NCBI GenBank assembly: GCA_033763315.1
Contig: JANRKS010000005.1
Location: forward strand, 32,001 to 96,000
Direction of reading: 5' to 3'
DNA: 64,000 nucleotides
From: Deltaproteobacteria bacterium
GTDB taxonomy: Bacteria; Myxococcota_A; Polyangia; Fen-1088
The notes below the pieces were generated by a model. The model was not told where the DNA came from. It was given only the letters and a program-made list of their open reading frames with translations, and ran no database searches. Both the position numbers and the translations under genes were made by a program. Position 1 is the first letter of the stretch. Every line of letters begins with the position of its first letter. This document shows positions 6,943 through 35,271 of this stretch, piece after piece.

Positions 6943-8568
6943 ATGGCAGCTAAAGAGATTCTTTTCGACGCTAAGGGCCGCGAGCAAATTTTGGCCGGCG
7001 TTAACATTTTGGCCGACACCGTCAAAGCAACGCTCGGTCCCAAGGGCCGCAACGTTGTGATCGAGAAGTCATGGGGCAGCCCCACGGTGACCAAGGACGG
7101 CGTGACCGTTGCCAAGGAAATCGAACTGGAAGACAAGTTCCAGAACCTGGGCGCGCAAATGGTGAAGGAAGTGGCTTCCAAGACCTCGGATGTGGCTGGC
7201 GACGGCACCACCACCGCAACGGTTTTGGCGCAAGCCATCTTCCGCGAAGGCACCAAGATGGTGGCCGCGGGTCACAACCCGATGGACTTGAAGCGCGGCA
7301 TCGACAAGGCCGTGTTCCGCATCATCGAAGGCCTCAAGAAGCTTTCAAAGCCCACCAAGGGCCACAAGGACATCGCTCAAGTTGGCACGATCAGCGCCAA
7401 CGGCGACGAATACATCGGCAAGTTGATTGCTGATGCGATGGAGAAGGTTGGCAAAGAAGGCGTCATCACCATCGAAGAAGCCAAGTCGATGGACACCACG
7501 CTTGACGTGGTTGAAGGTATGCAGTTCGACCGCGGCTACCTTTCGCCCTACTTCGTGACGGACTCCGAGCGCATGGAAGTGCACTTGGAAGATCCCTACA
7601 TCCTGATTCACGAGAAGCGCATCGGGAACATGAAGGATATGTTGCCGTTGCTTGAGCAGGTGGCTCGTTCGGGCAAGCCGCTCATGATCATCGCGGAAGA
7701 AGTTGAAGGCGAAGCTTTGGCCACGTTGGTGGTCAATAAGCTGCGTGGCACGTTGAACGTGTGCGCCGTGAAGGCTCCAGGCTTTGGCGATCGCCGCAAG
7801 GAAATGCTGAAGGACATTGCCATCCTCACGGGCGGCAACTGTGTGACGGAAGACTTGGGCCTCAAGCTTGAAAACTTGACGCTGAAGGACCTCGGCCGCG
7901 CCAAGAGCATCAAGGTCGACAAGGACAACACCACCATCATCGACGGTGCTGGCAAGAAGGCGGAAATCGAAGGCCGCTGCAAGCAGATCCGCGCGCAGGT
8001 TGAAGAGACCACGAGCGATTACGACAAAGAGAAGCTGCAAGAGCGCTTGGCCAAGTTGGTTGGCGGTGTTGCGGTGATCAAGGTCGGCGCTGCCACCGAA
8101 ACCGAAATGAAAGAGAAGAAGGCCCGCGTGGAAGACGCGCTGAACGCAACGCGCGCAGCCGTTGAAGAGGGCATCGTTCCTGGCGGTGGCGTGGCGCTTG
8201 TTCGCTGCGTGAAGGAACTTGATAAGGTGGAAGAAGCGAACGACGAAGAGCGCGTGGGCGTGAACATCGTTCGTCGCGCCATCGAAGAACCTTGCCGCCA
8301 AATCTCTGCCAACGCTGGCAAAGAAGGCAGCATCATCGTTCAGCGGGTCAAAGAAGGCAAAGGCGGCTTCGGCTACAACGCAGCCACCGACACCTTCGAG
8401 GACTTGCTTGAGGCAGGCGTCATCGACCCCACGAAGGTTGTGCGCTCAGCTTTGCAGAACGCCGCTTCAGTGGCTTCGTTGCTCATCACAACGGAAGCGC
8501 TGATCGTCGAGAAGAAGAAGGACGAGGCTCCTGCCGCTGGCGGCGGTGGCGGCGGTCACGAACACTAA
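6943..8568 (+). CDS. groEL: Chaperonin GroEL
   Basis: [45 protein letters not shown]; 541 aa. Confidence 0.99.
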
Positions 8569-8603
8569 GATCTAAGGCGCTCGCAAGGGCGCGTTGGATG
8601 TGC

Positions 8604-8640
8604 AAAACGGCGAGTGGCCTTCGGGTGGCTCGCCGTTTTT
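8604..8640 (+). terminator. Intrinsic terminator after groEL
   Basis: aaaacggcgag...ctcgccgttttt stem with T-tract, preceded by a GCAA-loop hairpin at about 8570-8599. Confidence 0.85.
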
Positions 8641-8711
8641 GCGTGTTGCCAGCGCAATCGCTGTAAATCGACGGACCGCGCGGAGCGCAGTTTGCCGGCG
8701 CAGCGGGAACG

Positions 8712-9110
8712 ATGCTGCTGGCGCTGATGAAGAAGCCCAGTTGGTACGACCTGCCCGCGCTGCCGTTCCCCGAGTTGCCTTACGCGATGGGGCCGTTCTT
8801 CGAGCAGGGCCTCAGCAATTCCGAGCCTGCTTGCTACTCGAACGAAGAGTGCAACAAGGAGATCACGGCGCGTCTGCCGCAGTTCATGAAGGAAGAGTTC
8901 CCGCCCAGCATGACGGTGACAAAAATGGCAGCTGGACGTGCTGAGTGACCCTTGGGCGTACTTAGGGCAGCTTCAGGACCAAACTTTGATCACCGCAGAA
9001 AACTATCGTGGTCCACCCAGGATGCCCACTACTGGAACCTGTTCACGTTCGAGCACAAGATGTTCCAGCAGCCCTTGTTCTCGGCGCACCGATTGATCAC
9101 CGAGCAGGCG
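8712..9110 (+). pseudogene. Frameshifted internal fragment of a third di-heme cytochrome paralog
   Basis: LPALPFPEL..GPFF.QGL.N.EP.CYSN.EC and HYWNLFTFEH..QQP.FSAHRLI match the C-terminal half of 884..3100 across different frames. Confidence 0.85.
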
Positions 9111-9241
9111 GTTAGAAGCAAAAAAGCAGAGTAAAACGGGGAATACATCCGTAGGCGACGCGTTCCCGGCGGCAAATCAGATCAAATGCCGTACATTCGA
9201 TTAATCGGACCGTACGAGTTCGTGCACAATGGTTGCGGTTC

Positions 9242-33534: not shown

Positions 33535-33583
33535 CTTCTCGTTCATGGTCGCTCCCTATTCTTGCGACTGAACGTGTCCGGTT
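33535..33583. repeat. 49-bp junction element X, copy 2
   Basis: 46/49 identical to 10673-10721. Confidence 0.9.
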
Positions 33584-33712
33584 CAGGATTTCGGGTAACG
33601 ACCACGTCGGAAAGACCTACGACACAACATTACAACTCCTGGGCCATCATCGCTGTGGGGTACAAGGTCAAGTCGGACTCGTAGTGCAGTTTCGCCAGTT
33701 GGCCGCAGAATT

Positions 33713-34531
33713 TTGCTCAGGCACCGTCAGGACCACCATCAAAGTCTCGAGACCGGTTTGGACTACAAGATGGCGCCTGCCACCCGGCCAAAGATTACGC
33801 ACGACAACGGACACCTTGTGCTCGGTCGCCGCGAACCTGTGGCCGGCGACTACGCGGCACTTGCCAAGTGGCGAGCGATGTTGAATGTGGGCGAGACGCT
33901 CCGCCCCGATCTTACTGACGCTTTGGCCGCATACCGCCACTTCCTTGATGGCGGCGGGAAGCCTAGGGTCTTCAGTTACGAACGGTACGTGATGTCCGAC
34001 GTCTCGGGGCAGACAACGCTTTGGAATGCCATTCTTGACTTTCAGGACGCCACTCAACGCATCTACCTGAAGGACCCCTCCCAGTATCAGTTTCCCGTCA
34101 CGGGTAATGCGATTCCTTGCGGAGCCCCCGCAGGCAAGTATCCGTATCTGTCGGCGATGTTCCCGTACCCATCGACCGAGAATTGGCAGAAGGCGATCGG
34201 TGCTCACCAAATCTGGATTAGTGGTGAAGTCAAAGCGCACAAAGCCCCAAATTCAAACGGGGAAGTTCTCTTCGAAGCAATAATGATTCTGCACGCAGAA
34301 GATCGTTACAACTTCAACGTGAGTGATGCCGATATCGCCACCGGCCTTCCCGATTCGGACAACGGCAGGTTCGAGCGGGTAGGGTGGGGCCATCAATACG
34401 ATCACTTCTCTACTTTGCAGCGATACCTAAAGTGGAAAGGCTTCACGTTGGGAGTGGCCGTTGCTGTTAGCCCCAACACCACAAGGATGCGGCAACCTAA
34501 AGACAACCGCCGTCTCCGAAATCGGCTGTGA
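33713..34531 (+). CDS. Hypothetical protein, possible toxin/effector domain with damaged 5' end
   Basis: Conserved-looking core YPSTENWQKAIGAH..HAEDRYNFN..DIATGLPDSDNGRFE; no good start codon. Confidence 0.55.
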   Translation: MLRHRQDHHQSLETGLDYKMAPATRPKITHDNGHLVLGRREPVAGDYAALAKWRAMLNVGETLRPDLTDALAAYRHFLDGGGKPRVFSYERYVMSDVSGQTTLWNAILDFQDATQRIYLKDPSQYQFPVTGNAIPCGAPAGKYPYLSAMFPYPSTENWQKAIGAHQIWISGEVKAHKAPNSNGEVLFEAIMILHAEDRYNFNVSDADIATGLPDSDNGRFERVGWGHQYDHFSTLQRYLKWKGFTLGVAVAVSPNTTRMRQPKDNRRLRNRL

Positions 34532-35025
34532 TGCGTCTGTCAACCGTCACAGTATTCATCGGCGCAATCACTGCAGCAGCCGCGTGCAAGAGCCCCGATA
34601 CAAACAAGGTCGAAGCGAGGCAATCGAAGATGTCGATCAGTGAAGACGTGAAGCGACTGGAACACTTCATTAGGCTGCCTGCCCCGCCAGACGGTGTGCG
34701 GTGGCTTAAAGAACCACAGCCGGGAGGCGGCGACTTGAGTTTAACCGCCGCTCTGCGCTTTGGCCCCCAGGCGATCGCAAAGGTATTGGAAGGCTCACAG
34801 CCCTTCGATGTTCAACCCATTGTGCGCATCTCTCGTGAGCTCGCCGTAGCATTGCTTCCCGAGCCGCTTCACAAAGGCCTTGGCGACGGGGCGACCGTGG
34901 CTGTTCCAGGCACGGCCGTTCAGCCGAACTTGTTCATCAGCCCGGAGACATCATCCTTCATTCATGGGCGCGCCGTAGTGATGAAGGACGAAGGGATCGT
35001 CCTGCTAAGCCTCTTCACAATGTGA
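34528..35025 (+). CDS. Lipoprotein, possible immunity protein
   Basis: Lipobox AAAC; GTGA overlap with the upstream gene. Confidence 0.6.
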   Translation: MMRLSTVTVFIGAITAAAACKSPDTNKVEARQSKMSISEDVKRLEHFIRLPAPPDGVRWLKEPQPGGGDLSLTAALRFGPQAIAKVLEGSQPFDVQPIVRISRELAVALLPEPLHKGLGDGATVAVPGTAVQPNLFISPETSSFIHGRAVVMKDEGIVLLSLFTM

Positions 35026-35108
35026 CGTATAAGGCCGTCTAGTCTAGCGCTGTGGGAAAGACGGATGTTGCGGTCATGAGCTCGATCAGGGCCGCTACTT
35101 TGTGCTTC

Positions 35109-35271
35109 CAACGCGCGTGGGCGTGAACATCGTTCGTCGCGCGATCGAAGAACCTTGCCGCCAAATTCGTCACTCATCACAACCGAAGCGCTGATCGTTG
35201 GGAAGAAGAAGGACGAGGCTCCTGCCGCCGGCGGCGGTGGCGGCGGTCACGAACACTAAGATCTAAGCGCT
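35109..35271 (+). pseudogene. groEL: groEL remnant 3 (about 8250-8303 joined to about 8482-8578)
   Basis: Direct match including the stop codon and start of the downstream hairpin; shares private variants with remnant 2. Confidence 0.92.

Follow-up and report, generated by a model that had tools for sequence, protein, structure and literature searches.

The accretion of genomic islands at the 3′ ends of tRNA and other genes leaves tandem partial copies of an attachment (att) site, with integration by a tyrosine recombinase and short repeats that stem from a fixed crossover. The mycobacteriophage Bxb1 reportedly uses a serine integrase to insert into groEL1, splitting the gene without restoring it. 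For the effector-immunity arrays of type VI secretion systems (T6SS) in Vibrio cholerae and for Rhs loci, a mechanism of homology-facilitated illegitimate recombination was put forward (Kirchberger et al., 2017; PMC5361080); as that article describes it, T6SS arrays and the orphan 3′ ends of Rhs and contact-dependent inhibition (CDI) loci share a conserved 5′ anchor, at which a new 3′ end arrives together with genes and the old end is shifted downstream. In staphylococci, phage-inducible chromosomal islands (PICIs; SeCISE48 and its relatives) sit at the 3′ end of groEL with an integrase and an excisionase beside the gene (PMC8125051). Here we analyzed the groES-groEL operon and its downstream region in a window of 64,000 nucleotides (nt) from a Deltaproteobacteria bacterium (Myxococcota_A; Polyangia; Fen-1088), comprising positions 32,001 to 96,000 of contig JANRKS010000005.1 in assembly GCA_033763315.1; positions given without a contig or genome name are those of the window. 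Three displaced 3′ pieces of groEL were found downstream of the intact gene, with blocks of unrelated genes between them.

Displaced 3′ pieces of groEL and their alleles

The intact operon consists of groES (6544-6906, + strand, as the open reading frame (ORF) is listed, its true start being probably internal) and groEL (6943-8568, + strand; 541 amino acids (aa)). The groES product was 92.8% identical to that of the gene upstream of groEL in the congener G001, and the groEL product scored 872.8 bits with the GroEL model TIGR02348 (cut-off 582) and was 92% identical to the protein of the syntenic groEL of G001. The gene is followed by a terminator hairpin with a run of U after it (8595-8647, + strand; −30.7 kcal/mol, z −4.56), which a simple terminator scan missed and folding revealed. 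Two further groEL genes, on contig C32 of the same genome, were 72-75% identical to the one in the window.

Copies of groEL were located by repeat finding, self-BLAST and whole-genome BLAST. These searches confirmed what an initial annotation, made from the sequence alone, had reported, namely three partial copies (R1, R2 and R3), all on the + strand and 3′ of the intact groES-groEL; the limits given there for R1 were exact, whereas R2 was found to start at 32852 instead of 32835 and R3 at 35113 instead of 35109 (17 and 4 nt). The remnants range from 115 nt (R1) to about 670 nt (R2), and the longest run identical to groEL within them is about 95 nt. R1 (10741-10855, + strand) is a copy of groEL 8192-8306 with three differences and adjoins the stop codon of a minus-strand DUF3160 gene. 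R2 (32852-33525, + strand) is a mosaic pseudogene piece made of three + strand segments, R2a (32852-32979; groEL 7690-7829, 79% identity), R2b (32978-33126; groEL 8024-8172, 95% identity) and R2c (33128-33525; groEL 8249-8647, 96.7% identity), between which 194 nt and then 76 nt of groEL are absent. R2a is 21% diverged, has lost 12 nt and has its GFGDRRK motif disrupted; R2c includes the stop codon and the terminator, whose hairpin folds as well (−32.5 kcal/mol, z −5.6). R3 (35113-35271, + strand) consists of groEL 8250-8303 (the core, with one difference, synonymous) fused directly to 8476-8581 (the tail, 93.5% identity); the two non-adjacent stretches overlap by 1 nt at the joint, and the piece ends 13 nt past the stop codon.

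Substitutions were counted codon by codon, and the proportions of synonymous (pS) and non-synonymous (pN) differences were compared. The three differences of R1 (L419, V438 and P450) were all synonymous, as had been annotated, with no non-synonymous change beside them; by themselves they were not significant. In R2c, which covers the last 105 codons, eight synonymous changes and one non-synonymous change were counted (pS 0.10, pN 0.004, ratio 0.04). The eight synonymous changes that had been described for the last ~60 codons of R2 were all found, the single non-synonymous change was TGC>TGG (C>W) at 8295, and the 79-nt non-coding tail of R2c carried three substitutions and one indel. Summed over the little-decayed segments (R1, the R3 core and R2c), 12 synonymous changes stood against one non-synonymous change, in agreement with the proposal that the differences are allelic rather than the decay of a local duplicate. 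R2b, on the other hand, showed two synonymous and five non-synonymous changes (pN/pS 0.81), and the contrast between R2c and R2b was significant in Fisher's test (p=0.035). R2 is therefore a composite, in which an old decayed piece was joined to a piece that had recently been part of a working gene. The view of R2 as one functional-looking allele thus holds for R2c (8:1) and fails for its 5′ two-thirds, that stretch being an old, decayed pseudogene piece (R2b 2:5).

Because the pieces differ synonymously from one another and from intact groEL, at least three functional groEL alleles are represented among the copies. Within the 54 nt that all four copies share (8250-8303), R1 has 8256T and 8292C, R3 has 8280G, and R2 equals intact groEL except for the C>W change. 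The tail of R3 differed from R2c at two synonymous and two non-synonymous sites, and the tails of R2c and R3 have three states in common that are missing from intact groEL (GTT, GCC and the loss of one G behind the stop codon). The GroEL residues encoded by the displaced pieces are the same, and no functional variety was seen in the tail. A second groEL paralog, which had been raised as a possible source of the remnants, was checked and ruled out, since the C32 paralogs are only 72-75% identical while the remnants reach 93-98%. Related-strain contigs were compared from four metagenome runs (X1-X4; window positions 16001-36000). Of the 8 R2c sites, 4 have the state of the window's intact gene in the intact groEL on such contigs, which also has the 8280G of R3, and the contigs contain the 76 letters absent at 33126/33128 in R2. 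These states show that such groEL alleles circulate among related strains.

A second case was found in genome G025, from another family of the same class. There, a copy of the tail lies 5 kb downstream of groES-groEL (4886-6839 of locus L120); the groEL region 6099-6843 (745 nt) is recopied at 11837-12575 with 94.8% identity, 20 synonymous and three non-synonymous codon changes and two in-frame codon losses (pN/pS 0.11 by the Nei-Gojobori method). In the 5-kb cargo between them, one gene is PIN-like and one VWA-like, and an integrase is absent; the original sequence after groEL was not recoverable, the relatives of G025 being too diverged. G025 constitutes an independent second case. As a control, 80 groEL loci of other phyla were inspected, 53 of them with at least 5 kb downstream, and none had a second groEL-like stretch. 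Short groEL matches in G013, G039 and G022 were rejected as genes cut by contig ends, and a double match in G148 as two complete groES-groEL operons with no remnant. In the latter genome, which belongs to the same family (locus L201, C5:4000-23999), the two operons and their ~4 kb flanks lie in direct orientation 14 kb apart; the operon copies are 91.5% identical, and identity ranges from 80 to 91.5% across operons and flanks.

The source genome (7.6 Mb, 40 contigs) gave 92 repeat pairs of at least 88% identity in a self-megablast, none reaching 1 kb. The groEL pieces account for 10 of the 37 repeat pairs within 60 kb and include the longest repeat of the genome (399 nt). A fourth groEL piece of 66 nt, corresponding to 8160-8225 at 89% identity, lies in an intergenic region of contig C7 (193408-193473, minus strand); it carries five synonymous and three non-synonymous changes and has the CTC variant of R1. 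This piece adjoins a tandemly duplicated 25-nt hairpin-like unit. On contig C16, fragments of 108458-109002 are recopied at 112639-112733 and 116612-116835, 4 and 8 kb downstream (89-96% identity); they stem from the signal region of a lipoprotein and from a portion of a 511-aa gene, and may reflect the same process at another gene.

Cargo blocks and the surroundings of the operon

The first block, E1 (8648-10740, + strand), holds a 78-aa ORF (8712-8948, + strand), a gene for a TAXI/NMT1-like solute-binding protein (9233-10630, + strand), a 52-nt motif designated d (10670-10721, + strand) and 19 nt more, after which R1 begins. A minus-strand ORF at 10379-10684 runs over the conserved end of the binding-protein gene and for that reason is probably no gene past its first codons. 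E2 (10857-32851) is a 22-kb block of accessory genes, which were assigned with Pfam and PADLOC: DUF3160, DUF1552, CBS, cytochrome c, HEAT, an extracytoplasmic function (ECF) sigma factor with its anti-sigma factor, a Secretin_N-like gene, a SWIM/DUF5691/MoxR-AAA/DUF5682/VWA cluster, a Uma2 nuclease (PADLOC PDC-S03) and an AbiEii-like nucleotidyltransferase with a partner. The five-gene cluster (22610-30117) encodes a SWIM zinc finger protein, DUF5691, a MoxR-type AAA_5 ATPase, DUF5682 and VWA_CoxE with strong Pfam scores; PADLOC yielded just a weak PDC-S62 match for it.

E3 (33584-35112, + strand), also called module B, is a two-gene module in which the gene of a 272-aa protein (33713-34531, + strand) overlaps that of a predicted 165-aa lipoprotein (34528-35025, + strand). 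The 272-aa protein had 177 metagenome relatives at 39-69% identity, with the lipoprotein partner after it in 7 of 80 loci, and linkage of the module to groEL was seen in none of the 80. Atlas clusters of DUF6402/DUF3289/Colicin_M type gave weak toxin-like leads only; the two genes may encode a toxin and its immunity protein. A second copy of motif d stands out of context at a recombination joint, immediately past the R2 terminator (33532-33583, + strand; 92-94% identical to the first). Read on the minus strand, the motif gives a 5′ leader followed by the initial codons MNEK, and 38 nt similar to it were found in the congener G002 (C7:11206-11243). Motif d corresponds to a conserved ~40-50-nt leader, a hairpin around ribosome-binding site and start codon, that precedes unrelated short ORFs in two genomes. 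Past the array, the first gene encodes an FHA-sigma54 activator (35335-36723, minus strand; Pfam) with no nt-level homolog in G001 or G002.

A scan of 30 ORFs from the 5-39 kb region (Pfam; some also PADLOC and NCBIfam) turned up no recombinase or transposase, which bears out the annotated absence of an integrase from the window. Furthermore, neither a tyrosine (PF00589) nor a serine (PF00239) recombinase was matched on the whole 385-kb contig (C5); genome-wide, five PF00589 and two PF00239 matches were obtained, all on other contigs. The cargo contained no element-type genes and the window no tRNA genes. The locus does not look like an integron either, with no integrase on the contig and with multi-gene blocks of up to 22 kb.

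In the congeners G001 and G002, groEL is 82% and 81% identical at the nt level, and the genes upstream of groES-groEL are retained. As would be expected from the suggestion that relatives vary downstream of groEL, other genes follow it directly there: one or two different genes, and then the block that is located 116 kb further on in the source genome. Nucleotide-level homologs in the congeners were found for three cargo genes only, all located elsewhere, among them the binding-protein gene (other loci, 71% and 68% identity); for 16-35 kb there was none in either genome. The E3 module was present at 90-97% identity in the four metagenome runs in other contexts. A contig of X1 carried 33971-35036, then 110 other nt, then 31110-31967, with no direct repeats found at the module borders, and in X2 a contig carried 33743-35028 flanked by unrelated DNA. 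On one related-strain contig, motif d and the same 19 nt as before R1 were followed by non-groEL sequence (loose end at 33583). Over the positions compared (16001-36000), none of the related-strain contigs of the four runs spans an R1, R2 or R3 junction.

Upstream of a small syntenic block (two genes and groES-groEL), positions 1-5068 of the window belong to genome-specific sequence (C5:9024-37069). About 28 kb there are not present at that place in G001, and the operon is therefore flanked by variable regions on both sides. The region of the 78-aa ORF has paralogs at 1341-1720 (minus strand) and 8718-9097 (+ strand), 68% identical at the nt level and inverted around the groES-groEL block, and more at about 17250-17440 and on contig C27. 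Further along the window, a c-di-GMP-I riboswitch was found at 51817-51892 (minus strand; 57.3 bits, gathering score 35), and an inverted repeat of 156 nt and 79% identity at 53033-53188 and 55099-55254.

Possible origins of the array

The reading that we favor, with a probability of about 0.5, is a displacement without integrase, in which DNA of related strains entered by a homologous crossover in groEL at one end and by an illegitimate or short-homology join at the other. It is favored because the differences are allelic, the ages within R2 are composite, no recombinase was found in two unrelated cases and the cargo is not that of mobile elements. The conserved 3′ part of groEL would have offered homology for repeated entry, each incoming DNA bringing new genes together with a groEL tail of its own. 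With a homologous crossover inside groEL, the gene would stay whole, and the far end would join upstream of the crossover through illegitimate or very short homology; with the join in that position, the former tail would be shifted downstream as a dead copy, and such copies could later have been trimmed by deletions. At least block E2 may have come in with an old decayed groEL piece at its end, and the block would then have undergone an exchange with a resident remnant within the 58 nt that both possess. The co-arrival of cargo and allele, the order of events and the type of far-end join are inferred. The remnants are best read as recombination scars and not as a working device.

Several observations weigh against this reading. 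Remnants were found in just 2 of the 77 distinct class genomes, which were scanned at 7-10 candidates each, among the matches listed. Neither a donor nor a circle was observed, nor any junction at the level of reads, no sequencing run having more than 25% of the sampled words, and the uniform GC content gives no sign of foreign origin and would fit native DNA as well. Apart from one change, R2c over its first 141 nt and the G025 copy over its first 158 nt match the intact gene exactly, which is unfavorable because from a simple single-crossover circle one would expect allelic differences over the entire remnant; a 5′ patch of full identity with a diverged 3′ part after it is nevertheless what would be expected if the far end had joined upstream of the crossover on a resident copy. 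Finally, each edge of the 54-nt block has repeated junctions lying within 1-3 nt of one another, a recurrence predicted neither by random illegitimate joins nor by simple homologous crossover. The repeated entry by crossover within groEL that the initial annotation had proposed is accordingly favored by the allelic pieces, the missing integrase and G025, and is called into question by these recurring junctions.

It is this recurrence, resembling the identity limits of attP and attB, that keeps a decayed tandem array of site-specific elements as the main rival, although we consider it unlikely. The recombinase would have been lost or would act in trans, the att site would be the 54-58-nt block at 8250-8306, and the elements would have carried the rest of groEL and thereby restored the gene, later arrivals entering displaced copies of the site. 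The block (8250-8303, + strand; codons ~437-454, 265-318 nt ahead of the groEL stop codon) recurs at 10799-10852, 33129-33182 and 35113-35166, the copies being 94-98% alike. All four copies on the contig have exactly this stretch in common, and the edges are the transitions from groEL to other sequence in R1, R2 and R3 (8248/8249 in R2, 8249/8250 and 8303/8476 in R3, 8306/8307 in R1); by a rough estimate the chance of both edge coincidences is below 1e-3. The pattern of single-nucleotide polymorphisms confines the exchange between R1 and R2 to 8296-8306, and the asymmetry of R2, whose left-hand arm beside the block is decayed and whose right-hand arm is fresh, is as this model would have it. 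The staphylococcal PICIs use an attB overlapping the last 18 bp of groEL (PMC8125051).

However, the block has no other copy anywhere in the genome, a scan for its pattern gave no matches in metagenome contigs or viral contigs, a 35-nt part of it gave none in genome contigs, and an attP-like copy was thus found neither in the own genome nor in the viral and metagenome contigs. It lies 265 nt inside the gene, the repeats reach unequally past it in the different copies, and its folding is ordinary (z −0.38). The lack of a tyrosine or serine recombinase on the 385-kb contig and of element-type genes in the cargo also speaks against such elements, and so does G025, which likewise has no integrase and in which the homology spans 745 nt. 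At the block that adjoins groEL the gene is intact and thus restored, but the same does not hold for E2, whose junction (8306, then the DUF3160 stop codon) could not restore groEL. If a site-specific array were nonetheless the right explanation, it would point to an unknown recombinase that targets the interior of groEL.

A local copy-and-paste of the resident groEL, through break repair or template switching, followed by allele replacement in the tail and with cargo that arrived independently, is distinctly improbable in our view. R3, stitched from two non-adjacent stretches with a 1-nt overlap, would fit such copying; the 52-nt motif d after R2 could be filler from another locus, and the 66-nt piece on C7 and the duplicated gene fragments on C16 point the same way. 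The identical 5′ patch and diverged 3′ part of R2c and of the G025 copy likewise fit a resident copy with a later replaced tail. On the other hand, alternating rounds of duplication and replacement would be needed to account for at least three alleles, including the synonymous differences between remnants, and within a single remnant R2b is about ten times more decayed than R2c at non-synonymous sites. The C7 piece also looks allelic, since it carries five synonymous and three non-synonymous changes and the CTC variant of R1, and copy-and-paste leaves it unexplained why any two neighbouring pieces have cargo between them.

Still more doubtful is a reading in which the groEL tail is itself an attachment site used without integrase, exchange between groEL and a remnant looping out a circle of tail and cargo that enters relatives by one crossover. 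Were it true, an essential chaperonin gene would serve as a class-wide docking point for defence and toxin-type cassettes, and a cassette would need at least the homology of the 54-nt block to stay mobile. An assembly artefact, that is, a chimeric contig from co-occurring strains with groEL strain variants in series, is very improbable: related strains do occur at 90-97% identity in several metagenomes and synonymous-only differences are typical of strain variants, but R1, R2a/R2b and R3 cannot be the working gene of another strain because they are truncated, carry deletions and frame-breaking changes and are joined to non-groEL DNA, the longest groEL-identical run is short, the assembly is otherwise repeat-poor in its 40 contigs and the same structure recurs in the unrelated assembly of G025.

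If displacement without integrase is what took place, the interest of the locus lies in the persistence of the scars. Gene-gain hotspots beside core genes are usually inferred from gene content only; here the scars themselves would remain, could be dated against each other and would document that a single essential gene underwent three or more exchanges in succession with no mobile-element enzyme involved. Should the pattern hold in the same species, it would be a sequence-level record of homologous recombination adding genes, not just swapping alleles, and would extend the displacement logic of polymorphic toxin loci to a housekeeping gene.

Comparison with described systems

Neither the use of the groEL 3′ end as an island site, known for staphylococci (PMC8125051), nor the displacement arrays at toxin loci are new. 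What is new is the combination of a housekeeping chaperonin gene as the anchor, long displaced tails that come from several functional alleles and the absence of an integrase, found twice in one class.

The Bxb1 case resembles the locus in that recombination targets a groEL gene and the genome contains several groEL paralogs, and differs from it in that integration yields no duplicated gene tail. With island accretion at tRNA genes and other 3′ ends, the array shares partial target copies in the same orientation that border cargo, the older ones being more decayed; unlike in those islands, the copies vary in length (from 54 up to about 670 nt), and a recombinase was not found. The staphylococcal PICIs likewise use groEL as a landing place, leave the gene intact and carry their cargo downstream, but their att overlap measures 18 bp and they have an integrase, whereas here the copies measure 115 to about 670 nt and no integrase accompanies them.

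The arrays of Rhs, CDI and T6SS loci offer several parallels. In both, the upstream part of the gene is continuous with what would be the newest 3′ end and the older ends lie downstream in the same orientation; the displaced ends derive from distinct functional alleles (12:1 here, and pN/pS 0.11 in G025); and growth would be stepwise, without a dedicated recombinase. The difference concerns what is displaced. In those arrays, the displaced 3′ ends encode different toxins, with the cognate immunity gene as cargo, and the ends are kept because of toxin-immunity selection. At the groEL locus, by contrast, the anchor is a housekeeping gene with a functionally constant tail, what has been displaced is dead, and the cargo has no relation to groEL.

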